Assembly: GCA_958295785.1 (NCBI GenBank)
Contig: OY282377.1
Coordinates: 3,534,896-3,598,895 of the forward strand
Reading direction: 5' to 3'
Length of the DNA: 64,000 bases
From: an uncultured Latescibacterota bacterium
GTDB lineage: Bacteria > Latescibacterota > UBA2968
Each line of letters starts with the position of its first letter. The stretch's first letter is position 1. The position numbers were made by a program, and so were the translations under genes. Under the pieces are notes generated by a model. It made no database searches. It saw nothing but the letters and a program-made list of their open reading frames with translations, and was not told the DNA's origin. This document shows, piece after piece, positions 2,914 to 61,462 of the stretch.

Positions 2914-4857
2914 ATGAGCCTCGCTGTTGAAACCCCTGCTGCGATTTCGTTTGCCGAACGGGGTGTTACCGCCCGCGCTGTGTTATTGGGCCTCGTGCTG
3001 GTGTGTGTCGAAGTTGCGGTGATTGCGTTTTCCGAGCCGGTGGCGCGGTCGTCGTCTATGAACGTGAGCCACTTTCCCGTGGGGTTTTTCATGTGGTTTG
3101 TGGCTGTGGTGCTGTGTTTGAACCCGCTCTTGACGTGGATTTATCCGGGGTACAGGCTCTCGCGCGCTGAACTGTTGACGGTTGCCGCAATGGGATTGAT
3201 CGGCGCACATATTCCCGGCAGCGGTCTTTTGGGATTTTTCTTGGGCGTGCTCGCCGCGCCTTATTATTTTGCGTCGCCCGAAAATCAATGGGAAGCCCTG
3301 CTACATCCGACCATCCCATCGTGGCTGGCACCTTTGAATGCACGTGGCGCGATGCAGGGGTTTTTTGAAGGCACGGCCTCTGGCGCGATTCCCTGGTCTG
3401 CATGGATCGCGCCCCTGTTTTGGTGGATGTGTTTGATCGGCACGCTGACCTTTGTGCTATTGTGCATCGCGGTGATGCTCAGAAAGCAATGGGTGGAAAA
3501 CGAGCGGTTGATCTATCCCCTGATTTCGCCCGTGTCCGATCTCATCGCAGATGCCGATGGGGGGGGCCTGCGCCGCAACAAGTTGTTTTGGGTGGGGTTT
3601 ATTTTCGGGTTTGGACTGCTGGCATGGAATTTTGTGTGGTATTTCTGGGATGCCTGGCCGCGCATCAACTACTTTGGGCGCAAAGACTTGGTGTTTATCG
3701 ACGGGTTTCCCGCGATGACCAACCGCATCAATTTGTACATTATCGGGTTTGGTTATTTTGCCAATCTGGACGTGTTGTTCAGCCTCTGGTTTTTCTATCT
3801 TGTGTACTGGACGCAGAATGGGGTTTTCAACCGCATCGGGCTGGATTTGGGGCCGGGCACCGGCGCGGCGAGTGCCTGGGAAAATCTGGGCGCGCTGTTC
3901 GCGCTCGTGTGGTGGGCTTTGTGGACCGCGCGGCAGCACCTGCGCGATGTCGTGCGAAAAGCGATCAATCCAAAATACGAGGTAGATGATGCGGGAGAAA
4001 TGGTCTCTTACCGCACGGCCGTGTTCGGGGTGATTTTGGGATCGGGGTTTTGCCTCTTGTGGCTGTGTCTGGCCGGAATGGCGTGGTACATCGGCGTCCT
4101 GTTTTTGCTCGCGCTTTACGGGGTGTGTTTGGGGTTGGCAAAAGTGGTGTGCGAGAGCGGGTTACTCTATCTGGCTTGGGGGGTGAGTCCGCAGGTGCTG
4201 GCGACCAATCTTCTGGGATCGGCGTCTATGTCAGGCGGAACGGTGACAACGCTGGCATTTACAGAGGGCCTGTTTTTCCACGGCAAGGGCCTGTTTATGT
4301 CGTCTTTGGCCAATGGCGCGAAGATGGGCGATCTCGCGTCAACCGGTCAGCGGCGATTGGGCAAGAGCATGGGGCTGGCGCTGCTGGTGGGCATTCCCCT
4401 GTGCGTTTATTTGAGCCTGGGATGGGGCTACGAACAGGGCGCGTATAATTTTGGCGGGTTTCCATTTCGCTACGGGCGTGACAGCGTGTTTGCGCGAGCC
4501 GTGAACACGCTACAAAGCCCTCGGGACCCCGCATCCTCTCGCTTGATTTTTTTTCTTATAGGGATGGTGGGCATGACCTTGTTGACCGTATCGCGCTACC
4601 GCTTGCCGCGGTGGCCCTTGCACCCTATTGGGTTTGCAGTGGGCGGAAGTGGGCGCGCTGCGAAATCGACGTGGTCCATTTTTATCGCTTGGGCGTGTAA
4701 GTTTTTGATTGTGAAAACCGGGGGCGTAACCCTGTATCGGCAGTATCGCCCCTTGTTCACGGGGCTGCTCGCGGGATATTCGCTCGGGGTGGGCGCGTCA
4801 TTTGCCGTGGATGTCGTGTGGTTTATGGGGCGCGGGCACTGGATTCACTTGTATTGA
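2914..4857 (+). CDS. Large polytopic integral membrane protein of unknown function
   Basis: ATG at 2914 preceded by GGAGA RBS (the ORF-track start 2890 is a TTG); >12 hydrophobic segments rich in W/F/G. Confidence 0.5.
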   Translation: MSLAVETPAAISFAERGVTARAVLLGLVLVCVEVAVIAFSEPVARSSSMNVSHFPVGFFMWFVAVVLCLNPLLTWIYPGYRLSRAELLTVAAMGLIGAHIPGSGLLGFFLGVLAAPYYFASPENQWEALLHPTIPSWLAPLNARGAMQGFFEGTASGAIPWSAWIAPLFWWMCLIGTLTFVLLCIAVMLRKQWVENERLIYPLISPVSDLIADADGGGLRRNKLFWVGFIFGFGLLAWNFVWYFWDAWPRINYFGRKDLVFIDGFPAMTNRINLYIIGFGYFANLDVLFSLWFFYLVYWTQNGVFNRIGLDLGPGTGAASAWENLGALFALVWWALWTARQHLRDVVRKAINPKYEVDDAGEMVSYRTAVFGVILGSGFCLLWLCLAGMAWYIGVLFLLALYGVCLGLAKVVCESGLLYLAWGVSPQVLATNLLGSASMSGGTVTTLAFTEGLFFHGKGLFMSSLANGAKMGDLASTGQRRLGKSMGLALLVGIPLCVYLSLGWGYEQGAYNFGGFPFRYGRDSVFARAVNTLQSPRDPASSRLIFFLIGMVGMTLLTVSRYRLPRWPLHPIGFAVGGSGRAAKSTWSIFIAWACKFLIVKTGGVTLYRQYRPLFTGLLAGYSLGVGASFAVDVVWFMGRGHWIHLY

Positions 4858-19058: not shown

Positions 19059-19133
19059 GGCTCCGGCGGTAGGACTCGAACCTACGACTTAGTGGTTAAC
19101 AGCCACTCGCTCTGCCGACTGAGCTACGCCGGA
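19058..19133 (-). tRNA. tRNA-Asn (anticodon GTT)
   Basis: Cloverleaf folded by hand: acceptor UCCGGCG/CGCCGGA, anticodon loop CU-GUU-AA, T-loop GGTTCGAGTCC, encoded CCA. Confidence 0.85.
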
Positions 19134-21547: not shown

Positions 21548-21637
<90 letters not shown>

Positions 21638-21693
21638 AAAACAAGTGATCAGCACGCCCAAAAAATGGCGTGCGAAAAGTCGAAAACCATTGT

Positions 21694-21783
<90 letters not shown>

Positions 21784-21822
21784 AAAACAAACGATCACCG
21801 ACAGCTATTTTACGAGGTCGTT

Positions 21823-22197
21823 ATGCCGCATCCCATTCGCATCACAGTTGGCGATATTCAACTCGACGCGCAGTTGAACGATTCGGAAACAGCGCGCAAA
21901 ATTTACGAGCTTTTGCCACTCAATTGTTCGTTTAATACCTGGGGCGACGAGATTTATTTTGCGATTCCCCTTGAAATGGGGCCCGAAGACCCACGAGAAA
22001 CCGTGTCGCTAAACGAACTCGGGTATTGGCCTCCGGGTCATGCGTTCTGCATTTTTTACGGATTGACCCCGGCCAGTCGGGATGGCAGTGAAATTCGCCC
22101 GGCGAGTCCCGTCAATATCATCGGTCGGGTTCTGGACGATGCCACGGTGCTCAAGTCCGCATCGGGCGCGCATAACATTGCGGTCGAAGCCGTTTAG
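21823..22197 (+). CDS. Cyclophilin-like fold protein (DUF3830-like)
   Basis: IRITVGDIQLDAQLNDSETARKIYELLP...NTWGDEIYF...GYWPPGHAFCIFYG...IRPASPVNIIG pattern. Confidence 0.55.
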   Translation: MPHPIRITVGDIQLDAQLNDSETARKIYELLPLNCSFNTWGDEIYFAIPLEMGPEDPRETVSLNELGYWPPGHAFCIFYGLTPASRDGSEIRPASPVNIIGRVLDDATVLKSASGAHNIAVEAV

Positions 22198-22198
22198 G

Positions 22199-22275
<77 letters not shown>

Positions 22276-22356: not shown

Positions 22357-22629
22357 GGTCGTGCTAGACGGGGAGATAGCGGTGCCCTGTAGCCCGCAAT
22401 CCGCTATAGCGGGGTCGAATTCCACGTCTGAGAACCGGTATTTTGGATCGCGGTCAACGAGTAAGCAGTGTTGATCGTCAGGTCCTGCGCAACGTGCCTA
22501 TGCCGAATCCCGTCAGGACCGGAAGGTAGCAGCGGTAAGCAAATCGGCGCGTGTGCCGCAGGGGCACCTGGCAGGAGCCCGCGCTCGTTGAACGCCCTGG
22601 GATAGCGGTTCGAAGCGCGGTGCACGGCC
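22357..22629 (+). ncRNA. ffs: Signal recognition particle RNA, long (Bacillus-type, Alu-domain-containing) form
   Basis: GUCGUGCUAGACGGGGAGAUAGCGGUGCCCUGUAGCCCGCAAUCCGC and GUCAGGACCGGAAGGUAGCAGC and GUGUGCCGCAGGGG and GGUGCACGGCC blocks closely match B. subtilis scRNA from memory; T-run follows; upstream of dnaX as in Bacillus. Confidence 0.75.
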
Positions 22630-48806: not shown

Positions 48807-49900
48807 TTAGGACTTACGCATGCTGAGTTAAAAAAGGGTGCAATTCCGTAAAATTTATCACTTTGAGGAGGTATCAATGCGCCACCCGACGCGTTTGGAT
48901 TACTGTCAGTATCTGCTTAGCAGTCCCCTCAACTATACCCTGACCCATTTCGCCGACCATAGCGAAGGGTTCAGTCATGATATGATCAACCGCTATCTCG
49001 CCGGTGCGCGTATCCCACCCCGCTTGGTGTGGGAACACGTCAAAGACCACATCGCGTTGACGCCCAAAGGCTATGTGATCTTTGATGACACGGTTTTAGA
49101 CAAGCGACACGCACGCAAGATCGCGTTAGTGCGCCGTCAATATAGCGGCAACGCCCAAGGCGTCATCAACGGCATCGGGGTGGTCACATGTGTCTATGTC
49201 AATCCGCAAGAGGATCGGTTCTGGCTGATTGACTATCGGATTTATGACCCGCAAGGCGATGGCAAAACCAAATTGGATCATCTCAAGGACATGCTCTCTG
49301 GGTTGGTCTATCAGAAGCGCCTTCCTTTTACCGGGGTCTTGATGGACAGTTGGTATGCGACCAAAACGGTCATGCTACACATAGAGCAGATGCAAAAAAC
49401 CTATTATTGTCCCCTCAAGACGAACCGGCGCGTGGACGATTCGGCAGGCACAATCCCCTACCAGCGCGTAGATAGCTTAACTTGGACTCAAGAGGAGCGC
49501 AAACAAGGCAAGTCCATTAAAATCAGAGGGTTCCCCAAAGACCACAAAGTGAAATTATTCCGGGTGGCGTCTTCTGCCAGACGCACGGCGTATGTCGTGA
49601 CCAACGACCATGCTCAAAACGATTCTTCAGTGGTACAACAGGTGTGTCACCAAAGATGGAAAATTGAGCAATTTCACCGCGAAGTCAAACAAGTGACCGG
49701 GCTTGAAAAGTGTCAATGCCGGTTGGCACGCATTGTACGAAATCATATTGGGTGTGCGATGTTAGTTTGGATAAGACTCGAGCAGGTGGCCTATCAAACA
49801 GGACAAACCATTTATCAAGTCAAATACCGAGGGCTGGCTGACTTCTTGAGACAACAACTCAAAGCACCTCATATTCCAATGGTGATTGCGTAAGTCCTAA
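48807..49900 (+). mobile_element. Insertion sequence (approx 1.09 kb) with 13-bp perfect terminal inverted repeats TTAGGACTTACGC / GCGTAAGTCCTAA, inserted into methyltransferase copy 1
   Basis: Inverted repeats at 48807-48819 and 49888-49900; flanking CAT/ATG triplet appears duplicated (48804-48806 and 49901-49903). Confidence 0.7.
48877..49893 (+). CDS. DDE transposase (IS4/IS5/IS701-superfamily-like)
   Basis: GAGGAGG RBS; candidate DDE residues in VIFDDTVLDK, VLMDSWYATK and RWKIEQFHREVKQ. Confidence 0.65.
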   Translation: MRHPTRLDYCQYLLSSPLNYTLTHFADHSEGFSHDMINRYLAGARIPPRLVWEHVKDHIALTPKGYVIFDDTVLDKRHARKIALVRRQYSGNAQGVINGIGVVTCVYVNPQEDRFWLIDYRIYDPQGDGKTKLDHLKDMLSGLVYQKRLPFTGVLMDSWYATKTVMLHIEQMQKTYYCPLKTNRRVDDSAGTIPYQRVDSLTWTQEERKQGKSIKIRGFPKDHKVKLFRVASSARRTAYVVTNDHAQNDSSVVQQVCHQRWKIEQFHREVKQVTGLEKCQCRLARIVRNHIGCAMLVWIRLEQVAYQTGQTIYQVKYRGLADFLRQQLKAPHIPMVIA

Positions 49901-52900
49901 CATTTTTCCCAAGTCAATACGAAAATCGCTCACGTCATCAACAGTCAAATGCCAGCAGTCTCCTTTAGTTTCCCAATGCCAAAAGAACAAGCTGGAATTA
50001 AACACACCTGACAACTCCTCTGGTTGAATTCCTTTTGCCGGATAATAAGTTTTAAACTCCCGTGACTTCTTGGAGGCAAGAAAACACTTTACCCACATCA
50101 TCAATCTAATGTTCAAATAGAATGGTTGAGAATCAGTTTTGCGATTAGAGTACAACGTATTCAGTGGGAGAATGTCCCTGTTGATTTTGCTGATAATGGA
50201 TTCTTCAAGTTCCGTTGCAAACTTACGAATAAATCCCTTTCGATAGTTTAGTCTGTTGTAATCCAGGTTGTTAAAAAGATGATTCCTTTCACTGTCGGGA
50301 GCTCTTCCATAAAAGTGAGTAAATCCTGTGGAATGGATGGCAGAATTTCCCTTAGTGCAAAGTATGATTGAAAGTTTCTGATGTACCCCAAAAAATAATG
50401 TAGATGGTCTGTCAGCATAATTACTGATATGCAACATAGGATAGGTTGCGGTTATGACATTTCGAGCTTGATTCATCCTCTTGGTTGACACCCAAGAGAT
50501 AGGAATTATCCACCCCGCATTTCTTTGACCGAGCGAGGTTCCCCGCTCAAGCACGAAGGCGTAAAGGCTGCCGCAGGATTCGGTTTCGTAGCCTTTGACG
50601 GTGTAGCCTTCTTTGGTTTTTTTGACTTTGCTGTATTCCACATACGGCGGATTCCCAATAATCACATCAAAGCCACCCTTGTGCATGATGCCGTAGAACT
50701 CGACGAACCAATGAAACGGCTGATGGCTGTCGCGCCATCGCTGATACGCTCGCCGGCTCTTGGGCTTGACGCCGTATTCACCGGCCAAATACTCGTCCAA
50801 CTCATCGCGCAGATTAGTGAGGCGTTTCCGCAATTTCAACTTCGCGCTGGCAAACGCACTGGCGTCCATCCCAGGTTTCGTCTGCATCTGGCGGAACTGG
50901 CGAAAGGCGCGGTCGGCTTTCTCGGCGCGTTCCTCGATCTGGGGAAGCGACAGTTGCTTGATCAGGTCGCTACTCAATGCTTCCTTCACTTGCGCGAGCG
51001 AAGTGAAGCCGACGAGCGTGTTCCCGGCGCGGACGTTGAAGTCGATGTCGGGCAACGGCTCGATCTGCTCGTAAGTATCCAACTGCGCGACGAGTTTGAG
51101 GAACAGCCGCAGCTTGCAGATTTCCACCGCCTCCTCCATGATATCCACGCCGTAGAGATTGCCGATGATGATCGACTTGAGAATGAAATAGCGTTCGCTG
51201 GCGTGCTCTTCAACCTGTTGCAACACTTGGCGAAAATCGCGCAGTTTCTCGGGGCGGTGCTTGCGGTTCAAGCGTTCCAAGTCGTCGAGGAAACCGCGCA
51301 TGGCCTCCAAGCAGGCGACGTAGAGCGGCTCCAAAATGTTGAGCGCGGCGAATAGGAATGCGCCCGAGCCGCAGGTGGGATCGAGGACGGAGACCGCGTT
51401 GATCGCCTTCCAAAAAGCGTGCACCAGTTCCGGCCCCTCGCTGCTCGCAATGACGTCTTGGGCAAACTTTTCGATGTCCAAATTGTACGTGATCAGATCG
51501 TTGATCGACGCGATTGCACCAGCGGCGAGTTTGGCGCGGATGTCCTCATAGCGTTGGCGGCGGGCAATGTGCTCGCGCCACGTCTCGGTCGGCAGAGCGT
51601 ATTCGGGCGGGGCCGCTTCGTTCCAGCCATCGCGCTTTGCTATGTCGTCCAGACCGGCGGCGATCTCCGGCGGCAGGGCGCGTTTTTCGGCAAGGTCCGC
51701 GTTGTTGTGCAGATCGTAGGTGATGCCGTGACGCACCGCCTCGTGAAAGTAGCGATCCGGGGCGTCCGACAGCAACCGCCATATCCAGCCATCGGGCGAG
51801 AAGGCGATGGCGCATGCCTTTCGCGCTCGGTCGAACAAGAACGGAATGATGCTGTTGCGGCTAATGTAGCCGGTAATGTCTTCCTTGGTGTAGTACGCCC
51901 CCATCTGTTTCTGGTTGATGTACTTCTCGAAAATGTAGCCGAGCACATCGGGGTTGATCTCGTTGTCGTTGCGGAGCGGCCGGTCGTCGAGATGCCATTG
52001 GTACGCGTCGAAGAACGCGAAAATCTGTTCAAAGGCTTCGTCGGGAATGTGAATTTCCGGGTTGTCCCGCTCCAAGTCATGCACCTCGAACAAGCCGCCG
52101 TTGAGATAGGGGACTTTGCCGATCAGGGCGACCAAGGCGGGGGCGCGGTCAGCTTCGGGCTGTCCCAAGCCCTCGTGAAACAGCCGCAACAGGAACAGCC
52201 GGTAAAAGCCGAGGAAGTTGCCCTCGCCCTGTTGCTGGCGCACCCGTTCCAAACGGTCGCGCAGATAGTTTGGGTTGTTGTCGAGAAAACCGCGCTTCTG
52301 GATGAAGTAAATGAACATCATGCGATTGAGCATCAGCGAGGCGTACCACTCGCGGTCAGTCAAATTTTCAATGCCCTCGATGAAGTCCAGAAACGCGCTG
52401 TGCTCTTTCTTGAACCGGTCATAGAATCGCTTGGCGACTTTCTCCACATCGAAAGCCGCCCGCACTCGGCTCGTCACATCGACAAGGGTGAGGGCTTCTT
52501 CCTCCTCCAGCGCGAAGGCGATTTGCTCTAACTTCTGGACCAGGGATTCGCCCGATTGCCCCCGATCATAGATATGCTGTCGAGACCGATCGGGGCGACC
52601 CGGTTCGCGCTTGACCCATTGCCAATACTGGGCATCGGCGCGTGCGTAGATGATGAGGTGTTCGCGGACGGTCTTGGCGACATTCCGCTCGATCTTCTGC
52701 CGAGTGGGGTAATCGGGCAAGGCCCTGTCCGAATCCGCCATGTATTGATAGGCAACCATACCGCGCTTGTGGGCGATGGCCTCGAGCGCGTAAGTCTTAC
52801 CGGCGATAGTAACCTCGGTATCCGCTCCGCCGTGGTCCCAGCCGAGTTCTTCAATGAAGAGCGTCTGAAGATCGAAGTTCTCCAGATGTCGTTTGACTGT

Positions 52901-52918
52901 GTTTCTGTTGAAATTCAT
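49859..52918 (-). CDS. PglX/DrmMI-like (Eco57I-superfamily) N6-adenine DNA methyltransferase, copy 1; TRD truncated by the IS, so likely inactivated
   Basis: Motif I VLDPTCGSGAFL, motif IV IIGNPPYV; last 13 aa (LGLTQSPLEYEVL) are encoded by the IS right end. Confidence 0.75.
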   Translation of the reverse strand: MNFNRNTVKRHLENFDLQTLFIEELGWDHGGADTEVTIAGKTYALEAIAHKRGMVAYQYMADSDRALPDYPTRQKIERNVAKTVREHLIIYARADAQYWQWVKREPGRPDRSRQHIYDRGQSGESLVQKLEQIAFALEEEEALTLVDVTSRVRAAFDVEKVAKRFYDRFKKEHSAFLDFIEGIENLTDREWYASLMLNRMMFIYFIQKRGFLDNNPNYLRDRLERVRQQQGEGNFLGFYRLFLLRLFHEGLGQPEADRAPALVALIGKVPYLNGGLFEVHDLERDNPEIHIPDEAFEQIFAFFDAYQWHLDDRPLRNDNEINPDVLGYIFEKYINQKQMGAYYTKEDITGYISRNSIIPFLFDRARKACAIAFSPDGWIWRLLSDAPDRYFHEAVRHGITYDLHNNADLAEKRALPPEIAAGLDDIAKRDGWNEAAPPEYALPTETWREHIARRQRYEDIRAKLAAGAIASINDLITYNLDIEKFAQDVIASSEGPELVHAFWKAINAVSVLDPTCGSGAFLFAALNILEPLYVACLEAMRGFLDDLERLNRKHRPEKLRDFRQVLQQVEEHASERYFILKSIIIGNLYGVDIMEEAVEICKLRLFLKLVAQLDTYEQIEPLPDIDFNVRAGNTLVGFTSLAQVKEALSSDLIKQLSLPQIEERAEKADRAFRQFRQMQTKPGMDASAFASAKLKLRKRLTNLRDELDEYLAGEYGVKPKSRRAYQRWRDSHQPFHWFVEFYGIMHKGGFDVIIGNPPYVEYSKVKKTKEGYTVKGYETESCGSLYAFVLERGTSLGQRNAGWIIPISWVSTKRMNQARNVITATYPMLHISNYADRPSTLFFGVHQKLSIILCTKGNSAIHSTGFTHFYGRAPDSERNHLFNNLDYNRLNYRKGFIRKFATELEESIISKINRDILPLNTLYSNRKTDSQPFYLNIRLMMWVKCFLASKKSREFKTYYPAKGIQPEELSGVFNSSLFFWHWETKGDCWHLTVDDVSDFRIDLGKMLGLTQSPLEYEVL

Positions 52919-52958
52919 GGTGAAACCTCTACTGCGAAACTACGAAAAACGCGAAAAG
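50650..52958. repeat. Approx 2.3-kb near-identical direct repeat (copy 1) covering the methyltransferase 5' leader through the NPPY motif
   Basis: Matches 55195-57503; identity degrades at the low-coordinate boundary. Confidence 0.8.
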
Positions 52959-53016
52959 GCGCAAAAAAAACAATGCCCATTCTTCAGTCCTTTCGCGCCT
53001 TTCACGTTTTTCGTAG
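52936..53016. repeat. Long imperfect hairpin (22-bp arms CTACGAAAAACGCGAAAAGGCGC / GCGCCTTTCACGTTTTTCGTAG) between the HNH gene and methyltransferase copy 1
   Basis: Arms are near-perfect reverse complements separated by approx 35 nt; same motif family recurs at 57481-57668 and 58058. Confidence 0.45.
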
Positions 53017-53040
53017 TCCCTTTTCGCCCCATGCGATTTC

Positions 53041-54009
53041 TCAGGCCAACTCGACTCCCCGCAACTCACTGCCGAGTGAAAGGTTATCCGGTGCAGGAAA
53101 CCACTCGTCATTGGCTGGCAGAAGTAGTTCACTTCTGAGTTGCTCTTCGTACCTACTCAGCCCATCGGCTCTGCCCATTTTTTTTAAGTGCTTAACTCTA
53201 GACGAGTTCAGATGGATTGAGTAGTCATCCCGAACATAGAGTAGTCCGGTATCGAAAGACCGATGATGCAAGGAGCAAAGAGCCAAGCCATTGCTGACTA
53301 CATCATGCCCTTGTAGATGGGCGTGTGGCACAATATGAGCGGCATCTACAAGGCCCAGTTGAATCCCGCACATTGCACACCTGTAGGAGTACGCTTCTAA
53401 CACCGCTTGCCTGAATCGTGGGTTTCGAGGATACGCAGTACTAGTTACCTGTATTCTCTGTCGCTTGACCGCGATTGGTCGCGCAAGGAATTGCTTATAG
53501 TCTCGGGCTATCCTTTGCAATGCCCGATCAGTATCTCGGTGAAGTGCTGCCTGGTTCTCCACATACAAACCAATGAGATCGGGGCGAAACATGATCACGA
53601 TTTGCCCATCGGTGTCGGTATGAGTTGATAATCCCTGTGCGGCAGCCTCCTGCATGCGCGATAACCGAGTATAGAGAGAAAATCGCTGGACTCTCGATTT
53701 CCGGTCCAAAAGTCTGTCTGGATCCCATGCGCTGAATGTATTTACGTCTGCGGAAAATCCGAGAACGAGAACCTTGTCCTCCCTTTGTCTATTCCTGAGT
53801 TTCTCAGGCAAGTCGCCTGGACATTGGATCCGATATTCATCCGGCGTACGGCTAGTAGAATGGATGTTGCCAATGAAAACAGTAACGAACTTGTCTTTGA
53901 AGAAAAAGCGGTACGGATTGTCTCTGCCATCAAAATAGACGAGGTCTGTGTGTTGTCGAAAAGCGTCGAACAATGCATGGAACAGATCCATCTTGTTTAG
54001 TATGACCAT
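53041..54009 (-). CDS. HNH endonuclease with approx 200-aa uncharacterised N-terminal domain
   Basis: C-terminal HNH motif CAMCGIQLGLVDAAHIVPHAHLQGHDVVSNGLALCSLHHRSFD. Confidence 0.7.
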   Translation of the reverse strand: MVILNKMDLFHALFDAFRQHTDLVYFDGRDNPYRFFFKDKFVTVFIGNIHSTSRTPDEYRIQCPGDLPEKLRNRQREDKVLVLGFSADVNTFSAWDPDRLLDRKSRVQRFSLYTRLSRMQEAAAQGLSTHTDTDGQIVIMFRPDLIGLYVENQAALHRDTDRALQRIARDYKQFLARPIAVKRQRIQVTSTAYPRNPRFRQAVLEAYSYRCAMCGIQLGLVDAAHIVPHAHLQGHDVVSNGLALCSLHHRSFDTGLLYVRDDYSIHLNSSRVKHLKKMGRADGLSRYEEQLRSELLLPANDEWFPAPDNLSLGSELRGVELA

Positions 54010-54037
54010 TTCAAATTATCCTCAATCGTTATGCCGA

Positions 54038-57000
54038 CTAAATTTCTTCAACGCGCTCAGGTTTAATCGAGAATGTCGTCGATATCCACTCGTCAATTTC
54101 GTGCAGACGACCATCGGCGGAAAAATCCATGGGACTCGGCGGCAGGAAACGCTCTCTTAGAGATGGGGGGATGTTCTTCTCTCCGGCTTCGTAGTTGATA
54201 CTACGTACCAAAGAAATAAAAAAAAATAATTCTTTCAAATCAGCCCAACCTGCACCCAGTCCCGAAAGAAATACAACATCGGCCTTTCTCGTCAGTGAAA
54301 GCAACTTTTGATAGTTGAAATTTCCAACGTACTTACCTGCGTTTTTCTTAAAGACAAGCGCGGAATATCTTTGTTGGTGTAGTAATTCTCCAATGGTAGC
54401 CAGCCTGCGTAAATGATCTTTTGGAAACGAAGCGATGGGCGCGAGGAGGTCCGTGAGTAACCAGTTTGTAACGTGGAATCCATCCCCTCGCGTTAGCCAA
54501 TACCAAAAGCAGGCGTCGCCTGCTGTACTCGCGAGCGCGGCAAATGCTATCTCATCAGAGGGCAGTGTCAGCCAGCCGCACTGAGCGGGATCGAGCACAC
54601 ATCCGTCATCTACGTGCAATACGGGTGGCTGTTCAAGATATGTAGAAATGAAATTCCGCGCTGTGGGCGAAAATCCCAATCTGACTGTTGCACCATCTGT
54701 AGCGCAGGGCGAGGTTGGCTTTGAGGGAGATGACTCGATGTGCAATGCCAACAGTTTTGCACAGTAGCGATTCGCCAAGCGGGGAATGCCGAAATTTTCG
54801 GCGGGGACGCCATTAGCTACCTTGTTATAGGTTATGTTGTTCAGCAGAAAAGTCCGAAACGCCGAGCGCCATCTAAAGAGACGAGTGGCGAACGAATCGC
54901 CATCCGATGGGGAACTAAGCCAGATTGTGCATCGCTGGCTTACGCCGGAAAAGAGGGTTGCGGGCCCATTGTCGAAAGAAGAAAACCAATGCGTCCCCCT
55001 GTTGGCGAGTTGCCCCCGGAGGTCAGAAAACTCAAAGCTGAAGGTCACAGAAAGGGGAACAATAACCCCGTAGCGTCCGCACTGATTGGTGATGCGGTGG
55101 GATTGCATGACCACGTATCCATAAATGTCCGGGAATTTCAGGGACTTGGGCGACTGCACAACGTATTCCAGTGACTTGCAGTTGATATACGGCGGGTTCC
55201 CGATCACCACATCAAAGCCGCCCTTGTGCATGATGCCGTAGAACTCGACGAACCAATGAAACGGCTGGTGGCTGTCGCGCCATCGCTGATACGCTCGCCG
55301 GCTCTTGGGCTTGACGCCGTATTCACCGGCCAAATACTCGTCCAATTCGTCGCGCAGATTGGTGAGGCGTTTCCGCAATTCCGACTTCGCGCTGGCAAAC
55401 GCACTGGCATCCATCCCAGGTTTCGTCTGCATGGCGTGGAACTGGCGAAAGGCGTGGTCGGCTTTCTCGGCGCGTTTCTCGATCTGGGGAAGCGACAGTT
55501 GCTTGATCAGGTCGCTACTCAATGCTTCCTTCACTTGCGCGAGCGACGTGAAGCCGACGAGCGTGTTCCCGGCGCGGACGTTGAAGTCGATGTCGGGCAA
55601 CGGCTCGATCTGCTCGTAAGTATCCAACTGCGCGACGAGTTTGAGGAACAGCCGTAGCTTGCAGATTTCCACCGCCTCCTCCATGATATCCACGCCATAG
55701 AGATTGCCGATGATGATCGACTTGAGAATGAAATAGCGTTCGCTGGCGTGCTCTTCAACCTGTTGCAACACTTGGCGGAAGTCGCACAGTTTCTCGGGAT
55801 GGTGCTTGCGGTTCGAGCGTTCCAAGTCGTCGAGGAAACCGCGCATGGCCTCCAAGCAGGCGACGTAGAGCGGCTCCAAAATGTTGAGCGCGGCGAATAG
55901 GAATGCGCCCGAGCCGCAGGTGGGATCGAGGACGGAGACCGCGTTGATCGCCTTCCAAAAAGCGCGAATCAGTTCCGGCCCCTCGCTGCTCGCAATGACG
56001 TCTTGGGCAAACTTTTCGATGTCCAAATTGTACGTGATCAGATCGTTGATCGACGCGATTGCACCAGCGGCGAGTTTGGCGCGGATGTCCTCATAGCGTT
56101 GGCGGCGGGCGATGTGCTCGCGCCACGTCTCGGTCGGCAGAGCGTATTCGGGCGGGGCCGCTTCGTTCCAGCCATCGCGCTTTGCTATGTCGTCCAGACC
56201 GGCGGCGATCTCCGGCGGCAGGGCGCGTTTTTCGACAAGGTCCGCGTTGTTGTGCAGATCGTAGGTGATGCCGTGACGCACCGCCTCGTGAAAGTAGCGA
56301 TCCGGGGCGTCCGACAGCAACCGCCATACCCAGCCATCGGGCGAGAAGGCGATGGCGCATGCCTTTCGCGCTCGGTCGAACAAGAACGGAATGATGCTGT
56401 TGCGGCTAATGTAGCCGGTGATGTCTTCCTTGGTGTAGTACGCCCCCATCTGTTTCTGGTTGATGTACTTCTCGAAAATGTAGCCGAGCACATCGGGGTT
56501 GATCTCGTTGTCGTTGCGGAGCGGCCGGTCGTCGAGATGCCATTGGTACGCGTCGAAGAACGCGAAAATCTGTTCAAAGGCTTCGTCGGGAATGTGAATT
56601 TCCGGGTGGTCCCGCTCCAAGTCATGCACCTCGAACAAGCCGCCATTGAGATAGGGGACTTTGCCGATCAGGGCGACCAAGGCGGGGGCGCGGTCGGCTT
56701 CGGGCTGTCCCAAGCCCTCGTGAAACAGCCGCAACAGGAACAGCCGGTAAAAGCCGAGGAAGTTGCCCTCGCCCTGTTGCTGGCGCACCCGTTCCAAACG
56801 GTCGCGCAGATAGTTTGGGTTGTTGTCGAGAAAACCGCGCTTCTGGATGAAGTAAATGAACATCATGCGATTGAGCATCAGCGAGGCGTACCACTCGCGG
56901 TCAGTCAAATTTTCAATGCCCTCGATGAAGTCCAGAAACGCGCTGTGCTCTTTCTTGAACCGATCATAGAATCGCTTGGTGACTTTCTCCACATCGAAAG

Positions 57001-57463
57001 CCGCCCGCACTCGGCTCGTCACATCGACAAGGGTGAGGTCTTCTTCCTCCTCCAGCGCGAAGGCGATTTGCTCTAACTTCTGGACCAGGGATTCGCCCGA
57101 TTGCCCCCGATCATAGATATGCTGTCGAGACCGATCGGGGCGACCCGGTTCGCGCTTGACCCATTGCCAATACTGGGCATCGGCGCGTGCGTAGATGATG
57201 AGGTGTTCGCGGACGGTCTTGGCGACATTCCGCTCGATCTTCTGCCGAGTGGGGTAATCGGGCAAGGCCCTGTCCGAATCCGCCATGTATTGATAGGCAA
57301 CCATACCGCGCTTGTGGGCGATGGCCTCGAGCGCGTAAGTCTTACCGGCGATAGTAACCTCGGTATCCGCTCCGCCGTGGTCCCAGCCGAGTTCTTCAAT
57401 GAAGAGCGTCTGAAGATCGAAGTTCTCCAGATGTCGTTTGACTGTGTTTCTGTTGAAATTCAT
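54038..57463 (-). CDS. PglX/DrmMI-like (Eco57I-superfamily) N6-adenine DNA methyltransferase, copy 2 (1141 aa, apparently intact)
   Basis: Motif I VLDPTCGSGAFL, motif IV VIGNPPYI; N-terminal approx 745 aa approx 97-98% identical (by eye) to copy 1; C-terminal approx 390 aa unrelated. Confidence 0.8.
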   Translation of the reverse strand: MNFNRNTVKRHLENFDLQTLFIEELGWDHGGADTEVTIAGKTYALEAIAHKRGMVAYQYMADSDRALPDYPTRQKIERNVAKTVREHLIIYARADAQYWQWVKREPGRPDRSRQHIYDRGQSGESLVQKLEQIAFALEEEEDLTLVDVTSRVRAAFDVEKVTKRFYDRFKKEHSAFLDFIEGIENLTDREWYASLMLNRMMFIYFIQKRGFLDNNPNYLRDRLERVRQQQGEGNFLGFYRLFLLRLFHEGLGQPEADRAPALVALIGKVPYLNGGLFEVHDLERDHPEIHIPDEAFEQIFAFFDAYQWHLDDRPLRNDNEINPDVLGYIFEKYINQKQMGAYYTKEDITGYISRNSIIPFLFDRARKACAIAFSPDGWVWRLLSDAPDRYFHEAVRHGITYDLHNNADLVEKRALPPEIAAGLDDIAKRDGWNEAAPPEYALPTETWREHIARRQRYEDIRAKLAAGAIASINDLITYNLDIEKFAQDVIASSEGPELIRAFWKAINAVSVLDPTCGSGAFLFAALNILEPLYVACLEAMRGFLDDLERSNRKHHPEKLCDFRQVLQQVEEHASERYFILKSIIIGNLYGVDIMEEAVEICKLRLFLKLVAQLDTYEQIEPLPDIDFNVRAGNTLVGFTSLAQVKEALSSDLIKQLSLPQIEKRAEKADHAFRQFHAMQTKPGMDASAFASAKSELRKRLTNLRDELDEYLAGEYGVKPKSRRAYQRWRDSHQPFHWFVEFYGIMHKGGFDVVIGNPPYINCKSLEYVVQSPKSLKFPDIYGYVVMQSHRITNQCGRYGVIVPLSVTFSFEFSDLRGQLANRGTHWFSSFDNGPATLFSGVSQRCTIWLSSPSDGDSFATRLFRWRSAFRTFLLNNITYNKVANGVPAENFGIPRLANRYCAKLLALHIESSPSKPTSPCATDGATVRLGFSPTARNFISTYLEQPPVLHVDDGCVLDPAQCGWLTLPSDEIAFAALASTAGDACFWYWLTRGDGFHVTNWLLTDLLAPIASFPKDHLRRLATIGELLHQQRYSALVFKKNAGKYVGNFNYQKLLSLTRKADVVFLSGLGAGWADLKELFFFISLVRSINYEAGEKNIPPSLRERFLPPSPMDFSADGRLHEIDEWISTTFSIKPERVEEI

Positions 57464-57503
57464 GGTGAAACCTCTACTGCGAAACTACGAAAAACGCGAA
57501 AAA
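55195..57503. repeat. Approx 2.3-kb near-identical direct repeat (copy 2)
   Basis: See 50650-52958. Confidence 0.8.
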
Positions 57504-57526
57504 GGCAAGGCCATAGCCCCGCTTTG

Positions 57527-57668
57527 ATTTTCGCGTCCTTTCGCGCTTTTCGTAGTGGAAAATACGATCATCTATAACTACGAAAGAGAAAAAAAAGACA
57601 AAGCCCACTCCTCGCCCCTTTCGCGTCCTTCCGCGCTTTTCGTAGTGGAAAATACGATCATCCTATAA
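57527..57668. repeat. Tandem approx 90-bp units containing palindromic motif TTTCGCGTCCTTTCGCGCTTTTCGTAGTGGAAAATACGATCATC in the methyltransferase-2 leader
   Basis: Units at 57527-57578 and 57620-57668 plus partial third copy at 58058-58085; CTACGAAA/TTTCGTAG inverted cores. Confidence 0.5.
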
Positions 57669-57686
57669 GACGCGAAAGGGATGTTT

Positions 57687-58052
57687 TACAATTCGTTGAC
57701 GAAACGTTCGTATTCTAATTTTGGGTGATAGCCGAAATTGACGAGCAGGCCGAGTTTCATACCTGTTGATTTCAGGTAATTGATGATTTGGCGCGATGTC
57801 GGTCTTGATTTCCACAATTATTGTGTCGAAACAGAGAAAATCAGGTAGGTAGAACTGCTTCAACGCCTGCCCTTTGTAACGAAGTTTCAATTTTGTCTTT
57901 TCCTTGTGCGGGATATCCGAAGAAGTGAATTCCATTGCGAGGCACTCTTGATAAACAGCTTCGAGAAAGCCGGATCCTTTTTCTTTGTACACTTCAAAGC
58001 AGGCACCGATAATCCGGTAACTTTCTTCCTGATAGACAATTTTTCCAGTCAT
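57687..58052 (-). pseudogene. GxxExxY-family (PD-(D/E)XK-like) protein gene with an internal frameshift or small deletion
   Basis: N-part MTGKIVYQEESYRIIGACFEVYKEKGSGFLEAVYQEC...IIVEIKTDIA in one frame; C-part QIINYLKSTGMKLGLLVNFGYHPKLEYERFVNEL in another; ATG overlaps helicase stop as ATGA. Confidence 0.6.
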
Positions 58053-61000
58053 AATTTTCGCGTCCTTTCGCGCTTTTCGTCGTTCATCAGACCCATAGAG
58101 CAGATAATGCGCGGCTCTTGGCGTTCGTCTTCTTCGTGCATGATGCAAAGCCGGTCGTCATCTCTGAGCGCGATAACCAATTGCGCGAGGGCCTCGTCGG
58201 AGATGCTGCTACGCAACTGGCGGTTCAGCGTATCCACCGCCGTTTGGCGCAGGGGATAGCGGTAAATGTCTTCAATTGTACGCCGCAGCGAATCGGTATC
58301 GAACAACGTGCCTTTGACGTTTTCCGCATAGCTCTTGAGCCTTTCATAAGCGCGAAACCGCGCACCGGATGGCCGGCCGAGATGACCGCCGACCTGCTTT
58401 TCCTCACGGGCGATATGTTCTGCGGCTTTGCGAACCAAATCGTGGTGGGTCTCGTGGCGCGGGAGGGCCGGCGTATCGGGCACGCATGCGGCGGCGTGCA
58501 AAATCTCGAATTGACTTTCGGTCACGCTATTGCCATCGCGATTCATCCACGCCAAGGCATCGTGCCCCTGCGCTGTACGCATATAAACCAGCGCGCCTTC
58601 GGGCCGCTGTGGCGTTTCCGGATATGCCATTGATGAATGCACCACGGATGGCATCGCTTCAATTTTCCGCTCGAGCGATGGATCGGCTGTTGTCGCGTTT
58701 TTCCAAATCTGATACGCATACGAGGCGAGATCGACATCCGTCTCGTCGTCGCTGTCGAGAATCCCCGCCTTTTCGTTGTAGAGGTCGAGCACGGCCCGTT
58801 GATCCTCATCCTCGAAAAACGCCTCGTCCGTTCCCATCACCTCGGCATTGTCGCGGAGGCGCGTCCGAACGCGGGCGCGAAGTCGGATCAAGCGTTCAAT
58901 GCCCTCGGCAGGCAAAAAGGAGCAGCACAAAATATCTCGCGCCTGTTGACCGATGCGGTCCACGCGCCCGGCCCGTTGAATCAAGCGGATAATCGCCCAC
59001 GGCAAATCGTAATTGACAACGATGGCGCAGTCTTGCAGGTTTTGCCCCTCACTGAGCACGTCGGTTGCGACCAGCACGCGCAACTCGCCTCTAGATGAGA
59101 CCCAAGCCGTCTTGTCGTTGCTCTTTGGACTGAACCGCCACGCGAGTTCCGTCGGGTTCGCCATGTCCCCAGTCGCGGCGGCTATCCCGGACACGCCGCG
59201 TGCTTTTAGCTCCATCTCCAAATAGCGCACCGTGTCGGCGAACTGCGTAAAGACCAGAATTTTGCGGTCGGGATGTTCGTCCATGAGCAGGACTTCCAAG
59301 GCGCGGAGTTTCGCGTCTTCAGCCGCCCGCCACGCGCCGAACTGCGCCAACAAATTGAGCAGCGTCTCGGTGTCGGCGACCAAGTTCCTGCGAAGGGCGT
59401 CGCCAAAATGATGCGAGGCCAACCACCGAAACCGCCTTGTGTAGGTGTTGGCAAAGCGTGCGTAGATCGCGGCAGCGCGGTTGCGAAAATCCCTTTCGGC
59501 TCTTAGCGGCGTCGGCTCTGCGGGGGCCTCATTCTCCTCGTCATCCGCATCAAAAAAATCCCCGATAGTCTGATCGGCGTCCTCGTCAAAAGACTGCGGA
59601 TCCAAGAGTCCCGCATCTGTCGTCCCTATCGGAAGCGGCAGGTCATTTTCAAGGGCATACAAAAAAATGAAGTTCCGCAGAACGTGCCGTTCAACCGACA
59701 GCAAGAAGGCGTGGCCGCTGCTCTCCAAGCGTTTGAACAAATTGGTTCGGCAAAAACCCATCAGCCGCTTGCCCGCGCGCGACAAATCGTCCAGCACCTT
59801 CTTTTCTCTCGGCGTGGGTGGCATAGGCGGCGACGCCCCGACGTAGTTGCCGAGTCCATAGCGCGGCAGTTCCAAGCTGTTTATGGCGTCGATCACGTCG
59901 TTTGCAAATAGCCGGGCGTACTGATCGTCAATGTCGAACGGAATCGTCTTTGGAACCCGAGTCGGAAAATACGACCGCGTGCCATCTTCAAAGGTCAGGT
60001 ACTTGCGACCACTGTGCGGATCCGTGTCGGCGTAGTGTGCACGAATAAAACTGCGCGTCCGGCGCACGAGATATAAGCGCATGAGCTCGCGCCAGTCGTC
60101 CGCGTACTCGGATTTTTCAAACGCGGATAGAGACCGCACAGACGCTTGGTGCCGGCGGATGAACTCGGTTTCGCCGATCTCCTGCAACATGCGCTCTGGG
60201 CGAATGCCCAAGTCCTCGTCTTCGGGCACAAACAAGCGGAGTTGGCTGGACAGATCGAGATACGTTTTGTTGTAGGGCGTCGCGGACAGCAGAATACACT
60301 TGCTGTCGTTTTCCCAGATGTATTCTCGGATGGCCCGGTAGCGTTTGCCCTCGCGGTTTCTCAGGTTGTGGCTTTCGTCGATGATCACCAACCGATACCG
60401 GCGCAGGTCGGGCAGTTCGTTGATGACGCGGCTCACCGATAGCACGCGGGCGCGCATGCGGTATTGATCGCGGTAATCCTCCCACATGGAAACGAGGTTT
60501 TTCGGACTTATGATCAGGGTTTCGAGGCCGTGATCGTCTTCGAACACACGCGCCAAGGCCGTCGCCATCAGGGTCTTGCCCAGCCCGACGACATCGCCGA
60601 TGATGACGCCGCCGCGTCGGTTGAGGTGATGCGCGGCGATTTTCACGGCAGCCGTTTGGAAATCGAGGAGTTTGTCGCCAAAATCTTTCGGGATGCGAAA
60701 TTCCGCCAAGCCGGCCCGCGCTTCTTGCGAGAGGTGGTACGCAATCTTGATGTAGATATGGTGCGGCGGGATCAGTTCTTCTCGCGCCCAACTCTCGTCG
60801 ATAATCTCGGCGAGCGCGTCAGAAATATCCACGCACCAGCGGTCATTCCAGCGGTCTTCAAACCACTGGGCGAGTTTTTCGCAGGCGTCTCGGTCGAGCA
60901 CGTCAATGTTGAGTTCGCCCTGTCGGGACAGCCCCGATAGCGTGAGATTGCTGCTTCCGAGATAGCCAACCGTCGGGTTGATCGGATCGGGACGGAATAA

Positions 61001-61462
61001 CAAGTAGAGCTTGGCGTGAAGCGGGTGTTTGAGAAAGAGCTTGACGACGACTTTCTCAGCCTTGATCTGCGCTGCCAACCGCCGCAGACCCGCCTCATCT
61101 TCATTGGTCGGCGCGCCCAAGATCAGTTGTTCCCGAAATTCTTCCGCGAGTCTTTTCTTTATGCGGTGTGCCGCCTGATTGTCGAGCGCGGAGCGATTGC
61201 CCGACAAGCTCGCGGACAGCCGAAACTCGTCGTGTGGCAAGCGTTGCATCCCAACGAGAAGCCGGCAACAATGTCCGACGCCTCCGCGCCACTTTTCCAC
61301 GTATTCATCAATTGACCGCCATCCTCGCAGGTTGAAATAGCCCACGCAAAAATCCGCCCGCTCTGCGATCTCCAGGGTCTCCGCCAACGCGGGATGGAGG
61401 TGTTGTTCAATATTGTCGAAAATTCGGGGCATACATGCTCCTACGGTTTGGAATTGGATCAT
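58049..61462 (-). CDS. Fusion protein: N-terminal PLD-family (single HKD) nuclease-like domain + SNF2-family helicase
   Basis: HKD motif HAKLYLLFRPD...GSSN; SNF2 motifs GLGKTL (I), IIDESHNLRN (II), helicase-C QRAGRVDRIGQ (VI); AGGAGA RBS. Confidence 0.8.
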   Translation of the reverse strand: MIQFQTVGACMPRIFDNIEQHLHPALAETLEIAERADFCVGYFNLRGWRSIDEYVEKWRGGVGHCCRLLVGMQRLPHDEFRLSASLSGNRSALDNQAAHRIKKRLAEEFREQLILGAPTNEDEAGLRRLAAQIKAEKVVVKLFLKHPLHAKLYLLFRPDPINPTVGYLGSSNLTLSGLSRQGELNIDVLDRDACEKLAQWFEDRWNDRWCVDISDALAEIIDESWAREELIPPHHIYIKIAYHLSQEARAGLAEFRIPKDFGDKLLDFQTAAVKIAAHHLNRRGGVIIGDVVGLGKTLMATALARVFEDDHGLETLIISPKNLVSMWEDYRDQYRMRARVLSVSRVINELPDLRRYRLVIIDESHNLRNREGKRYRAIREYIWENDSKCILLSATPYNKTYLDLSSQLRLFVPEDEDLGIRPERMLQEIGETEFIRRHQASVRSLSAFEKSEYADDWRELMRLYLVRRTRSFIRAHYADTDPHSGRKYLTFEDGTRSYFPTRVPKTIPFDIDDQYARLFANDVIDAINSLELPRYGLGNYVGASPPMPPTPREKKVLDDLSRAGKRLMGFCRTNLFKRLESSGHAFLLSVERHVLRNFIFLYALENDLPLPIGTTDAGLLDPQSFDEDADQTIGDFFDADDEENEAPAEPTPLRAERDFRNRAAAIYARFANTYTRRFRWLASHHFGDALRRNLVADTETLLNLLAQFGAWRAAEDAKLRALEVLLMDEHPDRKILVFTQFADTVRYLEMELKARGVSGIAAATGDMANPTELAWRFSPKSNDKTAWVSSRGELRVLVATDVLSEGQNLQDCAIVVNYDLPWAIIRLIQRAGRVDRIGQQARDILCCSFLPAEGIERLIRLRARVRTRLRDNAEVMGTDEAFFEDEDQRAVLDLYNEKAGILDSDDETDVDLASYAYQIWKNATTADPSLERKIEAMPSVVHSSMAYPETPQRPEGALVYMRTAQGHDALAWMNRDGNSVTESQFEILHAAACVPDTPALPRHETHHDLVRKAAEHIAREEKQVGGHLGRPSGARFRAYERLKSYAENVKGTLFDTDSLRRTIEDIYRYPLRQTAVDTLNRQLRSSISDEALAQLVIALRDDDRLCIMHEEDERQEPRIICSMGLMNDEKRERTRKL

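Follow-up and report, generated by a model that had tools for sequence, protein, structure and literature searches.

Hairpin-forming repeats in a restriction-modification-like operon are arms of a widespread inverted-repeat GxxExxY cassette

A group of short repeats lies in a restriction-modification-like operon of an uncultured Latescibacterota bacterium, within a 64-kb stretch of contig OY282377.1 (assembly GCA_958295785.1; the whole stretch is referred to here as the window). Analysis of these repeats showed that they are the arms of inverted-repeat cassettes built around a GxxExxY gene, together with gene-less derivatives, and that the family is widespread, with arms that co-vary. The gene-less hairpins, solo arms and tandem or nested arm arrays are derivatives of the full cassette. 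A search of the literature on GxxExxY, PDDEXK_3/PF13366, TIGR04256 and the arm sequences found no link to flanking repeats, and the inverted-repeat GxxExxY cassette is apparently undescribed.

The initial annotation of the window had described a local family of palindromic repeats in a ~90-bp tandem arrangement. The tandem copies were located as claimed: a 44-nt unit occurs at 57529-57572 and again at 57619-57662, with 98% identity and a spacing of 90 nt, and its initial 25 nt are present exactly a third time at 58056-58080. When up to three mismatches were allowed, this 25-mer gave three matches in the window and none in 100 shuffles. A second repeated segment (57483-57512 and 57576-57605, 77% identical) makes up the rest of the ~90-bp tandem unit. 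The core motif CTACGAAA was found seven times in the window against 1.0 expected, always within 50584-57645, and six of the seven copies fall inside the leaders of two methyltransferase genes. Tandem Repeats Finder reported one 10-nt period within a single arm and missed the 90-nt duplication. These data confirm that the repeats are real and not the product of chance. Searches with an 18-mer arm consensus (≤3 mismatches) and with a relaxed two-core pattern confined the arms to 52939-53017, 57484-57646 and 58056-58083. Within the window the arms occur only at this locus, but the family as a whole is found in many phyla, and its annotation as local is wrong in scope.

On the minus strand, which is that of the genes, each unit reads as the 5′ arm of an extended and imperfect hairpin. 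An arm is ~28 nt in length and consists of three 9-nt sub-repeats, NNCRCGAAA, each with the core C(A/G)CGAAA. The 5′ arm in the window (25-28 nt) is ACTACGAAAAGCGCGAAAGGACGCGAAA, with a core spacing of 9 nt, and the 3′ arm, TTTTTCGCGTTTTTCGTAGT, follows 37-60 nt downstream. The 44-nt unit comprises one arm and 16 nt of spacer and is therefore not, as had been annotated, itself a palindrome; the palindrome is formed by an arm and its partner arm 37-60 nt away (57484-57556, 57577-57646 and 52939-53017). There are four units. Unit C carries the GxxExxY gene in its loop, hairpins A and B are gene-less and lie upstream of methyltransferase 2, and the fourth, the leader-1 hairpin, lies upstream of methyltransferase 1. 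The parts, in the order in which they are met on the gene strand, are as follows.

58056..58083, minus strand: 5′ arm of unit C, ACGACGAAAAGCGCGAAAGGACGCGAAA; encodes the last ~10 helicase residues and ends 3 nt before the GxxExxY ATG.
57669..57680, minus strand: truncated 3′ arm of unit C, CCCTTTCGCGTC; inverted repeat, starting 5 nt after the GxxExxY TAA.
57647..57668, minus strand: spacer copy 1, TTATAGGATGATCGTATTTTCC; precedes hairpin B.
57577..57646, minus strand: hairpin B, gene-less; 5′ arm intact, 3′ arm degenerate; -24.9 kcal/mol as sense and -12.3 kcal/mol as antisense RNA.
57557..57576, minus strand: spacer copy 2, TATAGATGATCGTATTTTCC; precedes hairpin A.
57484..57556, minus strand: hairpin A, gene-less; -34.3 kcal/mol, z -4.95; 20 nt separate its 3′ arm from the methyltransferase-2 ATG.
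57461..57483, minus strand: TTCGCAGTAGAGGTTTCACCATG, comprising the methyltransferase-2 ribosome-binding site and start; it recurs after the leader-1 hairpin.
52939..53017, minus strand: leader-1 hairpin, gene-less, following the MTaX1-HNH gene and preceding methyltransferase 1; -39.9 kcal/mol, z -7.3.

The third copy had been placed inside the start of the GxxExxY gene, after the helicase stop. It is located instead within the helicase gene, where it encodes the last ~10 codons (stop at 58051-58049), and it ends 3 nt before the ATG at 58052. Intact cassettes elsewhere have CCTTTCGCGnnTTTCGCGnnTTTCGTAGT where unit C has its truncated 3′ arm. The spacer in front of hairpins B and A is 20-22 nt long and has the form TATAG(G)ATGATCGTATTTTCC. 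Folding of the RNA, one of the checks suggested at the outset, gave stable hairpins for A, B and leader-1, with the energies listed above.

The same arrangement was found around GxxExxY genes sampled elsewhere. In the layout of a full cassette, the end of the 5′ arm lies immediately ahead of the ATG and the start of the 3′ arm immediately behind a C-terminal ERFVN, and the element occupies a short gap between two same-direction genes. Unit C fits this layout, with its arm 3 nt before the ATG and its truncated 3′ arm 5 nt past the TAA. An independent sample was drawn from metagenomic GxxExxY genes picked by protein similarity alone (582 relatives found, 80 kept, 71 evaluable with enough flank), and complementarity over 26 positions was scored by comparing 70 nt of upstream with 130 nt of downstream sequence. 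The flanks were complementary at ≥20 of 26 positions for 53 of the 71 genes and at ≥18 for 61, compared with a shuffled mean of 16.2. Among elements with at least 19 of 26 Watson-Crick pairs (n = 53), the gene was inside the hairpin in 46 and between two hairpins in 7.

Genomes, one per species, were also scanned with a 20-nt degenerate arm pattern, which identified 111 loci against ~35 expected by chance by our estimate. Seventy-four matches were of the ACTACGAAA form, mostly from Verrucomicrobiota, Opitutales, Kiritimatiellia, Lentisphaerota, Planctomycetota, Desulfobacterales and one Thiotrichales metagenome-assembled genome (MAG); this last, which is fragmentary, gave seven exact pattern matches. 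The rest were ACGACG matches, including repeated matches in coding sequence such as the near-identical ones from Rhodobacteraceae. All eight GxxExxY genes present in the scan loci were bracketed by arms, and one was then followed by a gene-less hairpin, like that in the window. Complete gene-less hairpins, of 54-208 nt, accounted for 23 matches.

Arm sequences differ by lineage (ACTACGAAA, ACCACGAAA, CCCGCGAAT, ACCACGGAA, CCGCAGAA, CCGCTAAA and others), and both arms of an element match. In a 28-element alignment, two-sided changes were seen in 19 of 28 pairs, amounting to 85 cells against 29 ± 5 on shuffling (0 of 500 shuffles as high). Overall, 88.8% of cells in the alignment were paired, compared with 34-52% in slid controls. 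Because the best complementary diagonal served as the basis of the alignment, the 88.8% is inflated; the two-sided changes suffer less from this bias. The sub-repeat period was 9 nt in 61 of the 80 core-to-core intervals listed across the family, and one core variant was common to all six sub-repeats of an element. Several groups of loci with common flanking genes carry different arm variants, for example CGAAA-type and CGAAT-type (L011/L119/L124/L126/L129; also L136/L139/L159/L163 and L135/L140/L170). Cassettes therefore persist at one syntenic site even as their arms change in concert across all six sub-repeats.

Arms were also found without a partner. At Verrucomicrobiota and Kiritimatiellia loci (L022, reverse strand, 3490-3680; L109, 2710-3370; L013), 5′ arms run in the same direction, CGAAA then CGAAT, 50-110 nt apart and with no partner nearby; these may be nested or half elements. 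Loci from IMG/VR (L199-L252, on contigs classed as viral) contained 88 arms in 524 kb, mostly solo. Several of these contigs have multiple exact pattern matches, with six on IMGVR_UViG_3300028901_000135 (37 kb), and many of the solo arms are preceded by TTTA. Solo arms occurred 0-60 nt upstream of an open reading frame (ORF) start in 38 of 64 cases, against 23 of 64 in the control, while the strand of neighbouring long ORFs was unbiased (28 vs 26). With the enrichment at ORF starts this weak, the arm was rejected as a 5′-untranslated-region or gene-start element.

Whether the element acts at the DNA or the RNA level was addressed from the pairing itself. At non-Watson-Crick positions of gene-bearing elements, read on the gene strand, G:U occurred 29 times, A:C 36 times and other combinations 88 times. 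G:U was thus no commoner than A:C, and pairing as RNA shows no specific protection. In other genomes, gene-less hairpins had no consistent orientation or strand bias relative to neighbouring ORFs, as judged from ORF-based strand calls that are crude in GC-rich DNA. A sense RNA hairpin was rejected as a family rule on these two grounds. Complementarity between arms was 88% at the cores (CGAAA-type) and 71% at the spacers. That each element has a single core variant, and that cores are better conserved than spacers, points to recognition of the sequence. The initial annotation had offered the repeats as binding sites for a regulator; this is possible, and the cassette's own PD-(D/E)XK protein is now a better candidate. 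Taken together, the family data, including the arrays of same-direction arms that lack a partner arm and the mostly solo arms of the IMG/VR loci, accord better with a short repeated motif being recognised in DNA than with an RNA stem being under selection.

Signals of known RNA or promoter elements were sought at the locus. An Rfam scan of the whole window at gathering thresholds gave no family for the repeat region, and a permissive scan of 52500-58500 gave only sub-threshold microRNA-precursor models, which are generic long hairpins. A promoter scan of 52800-58300 for sigma-70-like sites (-35/-10, spacing 16-18 nt) found seven sites, none of them within the repeats. Hairpins A and B each have at the apex, as read on the sense strand, a GC stem with a U run after it; terminator-like matches in the region totalled 9, against 6.5 ± 3.0 in shuffled sequence.

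All genes at the repeat locus are on the minus strand, and three of the units stand in tandem within the operon. The genes are, from the upstream end:

58049..61462, minus strand: PLD (HKD) and SNF2 helicase, 1137 aa; upstream neighbour, with a C-terminus that runs into the unit C arm.
57686..58052, minus strand: GxxExxY / PD-(D/E)XK gene (TIGR04256, PF13366), with a frameshift near 57790-57805.
54038..57463, minus strand: Eco57I / type IIG-like methyltransferase copy 2, 1141 aa.
53041..54009, minus strand: MTaX1 and HNH protein, 322 aa.
49859..52918, minus strand: Eco57I / type IIG-like methyltransferase copy 1, 1019 aa.

The GxxExxY start overlaps the helicase stop (58051-58049) in the sequence ATGA. 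The closest homologue of the GxxExxY gene aligned in frame -2 over residues 1 to ~84 and in frame -3 over residues 95-128, and the canonical C-terminus, ..INYLKSTGMKLGLLVNFGYHPKLEYERFVNEL, is found in another frame, ending at the TAA at 57688-57686. The spliced translation matched TIGR04256 from end to end (117 bits). It is possible that the frameshift is an assembly error. Over their N-terminal ~760 residues the two methyltransferases are near-identical; beyond that point, in what is putatively the target-recognition part, they are unrelated, and as a pair they look like exchangeable specificity modules. Copy 1 is 1019 aa in the window and 1087 aa in an orthologous locus, L001. The leaders of the two genes are identical from inside the 3′ arm through the ATG, because the edge of the methyltransferase duplication falls inside that arm; the leader-1 hairpin is the upstream edge both of the duplication and of a strain-variable segment. 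Dips in GC content to 0.42-0.47 at 49500-50999 and 53500-54499, against 0.55-0.60 nearby, span the divergent 3′ parts of the methyltransferase genes, the second also covering part of the HNH gene, and are consistent with foreign or exchanged segments. Elsewhere in the window, and unrelated to the repeats, are a large bacterial signal recognition particle RNA (256-nt model) and four tRNA genes (22359-22627, 19061-19133, 21548-22272).

Near-identical strains were then compared at this locus. Methyltransferase 2 belongs to a protein cluster of ≥90% identity, from which four orthologous loci were taken (L001, L113, L114 and L115); the helicase and methyltransferase 2 are 98.5-99.3% identical to those of the window, as measured for L001 and L113. 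Between these two genes lie one hairpin in L113 and L114, two hairpins and a spacer in L001 and L115, and three units in the window, one of them gene-bearing. Unit number across orthologous loci, which had been named as a check, is thus 1, 2 or 3. None of the four loci has the GxxExxY gene. Of these strains, only the window strain and L001 have methyltransferase copy 1; the hairpin after the HNH gene is kept in L113-115, with different DNA directly after its 3′ arm. Because variable DNA starts after this 3′ arm, leader identity begins inside a 3′ arm and unit number varies, hairpins are located at three structural breakpoints. An IS1595 transposase is found nearby in L113, unconnected with the arms. 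The helicase C-terminus, which is encoded by an arm, also differs among these strains (window 58049-58083; L001 9760-9800; L113 5890-5980): it ends in ..MNDEKRERTRKL in the window and in ..MNAEKREKQD in L001, and in L113 the helicase is called at 1151 aa, ending at the TAG of TTTCGTAGT, because the ORF reads through the hairpin.

More distant relatives retain the gene. The closest GxxExxY homologues, P0076 (80% identity) and P0091 (72%), occur at the same junction, in L196, L197 and L198, where the helicase is 68-71% and the Eco57I-like methyltransferase 74-75% identical to those of the window. The helicase-methyltransferase junction of these relatives contains arrays of 3-10 arms (L196 2180-2500 and 2900-3120; L198 1400-1520, 2380-2460 and 3110-3630), the number of 3′ arms ranging from four in L196 to ~10 in L198. 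MazE-PIN toxin-antitoxin modules at the junction are flanked by ~100-nt direct repeats that contain arms, and in L196 a threefold ~110-bp tandem duplication comprises the helicase 3′ end, the 5′ arm and the initial GxxExxY codons. No hairpin precedes the methyltransferase in L196 or L197. The divergence of the GxxExxY gene is similar to that of the genes beside it, and the most economical account would therefore be that of an old resident cassette, recently lost by the 99%-identical strains; re-acquisition of the cassette by the window strain is possible.

The only gene type seen between arms encodes a ~125-aa PD-(D/E)XK protein; no transposase was seen there. The single query from the window has >7,600 homologues at E ≤ 1e-10, and the PD-(D/E)XK motif positions D71, E81 and K83 do not vary across 40 homologues. 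The structure of P0076 as modelled by AlphaFold2 (mean predicted local distance difference test score 80.8) has an alpha-alpha-beta4-alpha-beta2 core, a minimal PD-(D/E)XK fold. Foldseek comparison of this model with the PDB retrieved only distant PD-(D/E)XK relatives, with template modelling (TM) scores of 0.3-0.6, among them Cas4 SSO0001 (E 4.5e-4), tRNA-splicing endonucleases, Hjc resolvases and lambda exonuclease. Sequence matching found no solved structure for the GxxExxY protein, and no PADLOC model matched it.

By analogy, the cassettes would work most like systems of repetitive extragenic palindromic (REP) doublets forming hairpins (REPINs) and their REP-associated tyrosine transposases (RAYTs). 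In both, short inverted repeats able to form hairpins are scattered through intergenic DNA and also flank a small gene of low copy number, copies without the gene are more numerous than copies with it, target-site duplications are absent, and positions stay fixed over the long term (PMC3116915, PMC3337134). REPINs reach tens to hundreds of copies per genome, whereas the copy number of the cassettes is so far low. REPIN-RAYT systems have one REP palindrome, and cassette arms have three 9-nt sub-repeats; the cassette gene, in addition, is usually inside the hairpin loop. The cassettes are not members of the REPIN-RAYT group, because their gene encodes a ~125-aa PD-(D/E)XK protein (PF13366 PDDEXK_3 / TIGR04256) and not an IS200/IS605-type HUH tyrosine transposase.

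A second likeness is to ORF-bearing intervening sequences (IVS) of 23S rRNA, such as the Coxiella IVS with S23p, in which a small ORF of unknown function also lies within a long terminal-inverted-repeat stem, inside a host transcription unit (PMC4990558). Those elements sit in helix 25 or 45 of 23S rRNA, whereas the cassette is found between protein-coding genes; no rRNA was found in the window. S23p is a four-helix bundle, unlike the PF13366 (TIGR04256) product of the cassette ORF, and the cassette family has no RNA-strand signature. The hairpins also resemble the Correia or NEMIS-type miniature inverted-repeat transposable elements (MITEs) of Neisseria, hairpins of ~100 nt that are co-transcribed with their neighbours and can alter their expression. 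TA target duplications accompany Correia elements, of which no coding variant is known; the cassette, by contrast, has a gene-bearing form and no target-site duplication. The arms themselves resemble iteron-type or transposon-end arrays of protein-binding sites, in which short direct repeats at fixed spacing have a core conserved in concert. Integron attC cassettes were rejected on inspection by eye alone, with no search of the window for an integrase, as the arms lack GTTRRRY/RYYYAAC cores. We know of no described system with a 9-nt period and a three-plus-three inverted layout around a nuclease gene.

On balance, and with modest confidence, we lean towards a REPIN- or IVS-like DNA element whose arms are both recognition arrays, probably for the encoded nuclease, and recombination breakpoints. 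In this reading the arms would work as DNA, each a series of iteron-like recognition sites, and the protein that binds or cuts them would most probably be the GxxExxY nuclease, supplied in cis or in trans in the way that a RAYT serves its REPINs. Since identical arms lie close together, they would be substrates for unequal recombination or replication slippage, which could change the number of units, remove or add a gene, and duplicate or replace a methyltransferase module. As to the history of the locus, a cassette would have occupied the helicase-methyltransferase junction from a time before the ~70%-identity relatives split off. The window strain retains a decaying, frameshifted gene and two gene-less hairpins, with a fourth hairpin after the HNH gene, and its sister strains would have lost the gene while keeping one or two hairpins. 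Any effect of the stable hairpins in the operon transcript on the processing, translation or expression of methyltransferase mRNA would be secondary.

Several observations weigh against this reading. All six local hairpins (three in the window and three in L001) fold 7-13 kcal/mol better as sense than as antisense RNA, which fits a local RNA role. No target-site duplication, scored as a flanking direct repeat of ≥4 bp, was found at any of 26 gene-less hairpins (shuffled-partner mean 0.42). Cassettes are often at the same syntenic position across species, as in the L011/L119/L124/L126/L129 group, as would be expected of a stable host gene sooner than of a mobile element that is active. Finally, the 524 kb of arm-bearing IMG/VR loci contain no GxxExxY gene, and the partner of those arms could be a host factor or no protein at all.

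A rival explanation is at the RNA level: hairpins in the transcript that runs from the helicase through GxxExxY, methyltransferase 2 and HNH to methyltransferase 1, cut by RNase III or acting as stabilisers or partial terminators, would tune or uncouple methyltransferase expression in the manner of the stems of 23S rRNA intervening sequences and of Correia elements. The sense-strand preference of the local hairpins speaks for it, as do the high stability of the stems (-25 to -46 kcal/mol, z -2.3 to -8.4), the end of a 3′ arm 20 nt ahead of each methyltransferase ATG, the GC stem and U run at the apex of hairpins A and B, and the position of cassettes between same-direction genes. The six local hairpins, however, are not independent observations, because they are paralogues or orthologues of one another, and the terminator-like matches did not rise above shuffled levels. 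Across the family there was neither a G:U excess on the gene strand nor, by the crude ORF calls, a consistent orientation or strand bias of gene-less hairpins. Arrays of arms without a partner cannot form hairpins, and pairing does not require six sub-repeat cores to be conserved in concert. We therefore regard an RNA-level element as unlikely. Slightly less likely still is a recognition array for some factor of host or phage that has nothing to do with GxxExxY, for example a regulator or a protein of the nucleoid or of replication; GxxExxY genes would then merely tend to lodge between its sites. The IMG/VR arms, several on single contigs and none with a GxxExxY gene, would suit this explanation, as would their excess upstream of ORF starts, but that enrichment is weak and the strand of long ORFs was unbiased. 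Chance lodging is also hard to invoke when 75-86% of independently sampled GxxExxY genes are bracketed exactly, at the ATG and after ERFVN, and when arm variants change together with the cassette.

The initial annotation had raised two further roles. The repeats might be promoter or operator modules dedicated to the two methyltransferase genes, given that a hairpin lies at the same distance before each start and that from the 3′ arm through the ATG the two copies do not differ. The duplication accounts for that identity, however, and the repeats contain no sigma-70-like hexamer pair. The hairpin after the HNH gene in L113-115 has no methyltransferase following it, the methyltransferases of L196 and L197 have no hairpin, and across phyla the arms are tied to GxxExxY genes in unrelated contexts and not to methyltransferases; this role is highly improbable. 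MITE-like elements that promote rearrangement came closest to the role we favour, in that unit number, the GxxExxY gene and the second methyltransferase all vary at hairpins. Classical MITEs, internally deleted derivatives of DDE transposons moved by a transposase elsewhere, would likewise have inverted terminal arms (~28 nt here), a length in the range seen (54-208 nt), multiple copies in some genomes and a presence that varies among strains. The elements are nonetheless very unlikely to be classical MITEs, because no target-site duplication and no transposase were found: no flanking direct repeat marks the gene-less hairpins, the only gene between arms encodes the 125-aa PD-(D/E)XK protein, and the IS1595 transposase of L113 has no link to the arms.

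The DNA-level reading, in which arms are recognition arrays and breakpoints, could be extended to the family as a whole. GxxExxY proteins would then be the cognate nucleases of an undescribed, cross-phylum REPIN-RAYT-like system, each recognising its own 9-nt sub-repeats, with gene-less hairpins and solo arms as non-autonomous dependants. The arm arrays would serve as recombination junctions, already in place, for exchanging modules of defence operons, such as methyltransferase specificity variants and toxin-antitoxin pairs. We put this forward tentatively, as a possibility on the doubtful side.

GxxExxY is a very large family without known function. The presence of a co-varying, three-part inverted repeat around most of the GxxExxY (TIGR04256 / PF13366) genes sampled leads to a testable idea, namely that the nuclease recognises the repeats. 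The cassette nature of the element explains why GxxExxY genes appear as 'extras' in restriction-modification and other operons. The repeats are also the junctions at which near-identical strains differ, in how many hairpins they have, in the nuclease gene, and in the second methyltransferase, whose C-terminal, putatively recognition, domain is different. These strain differences bear on how defence islands diversify.

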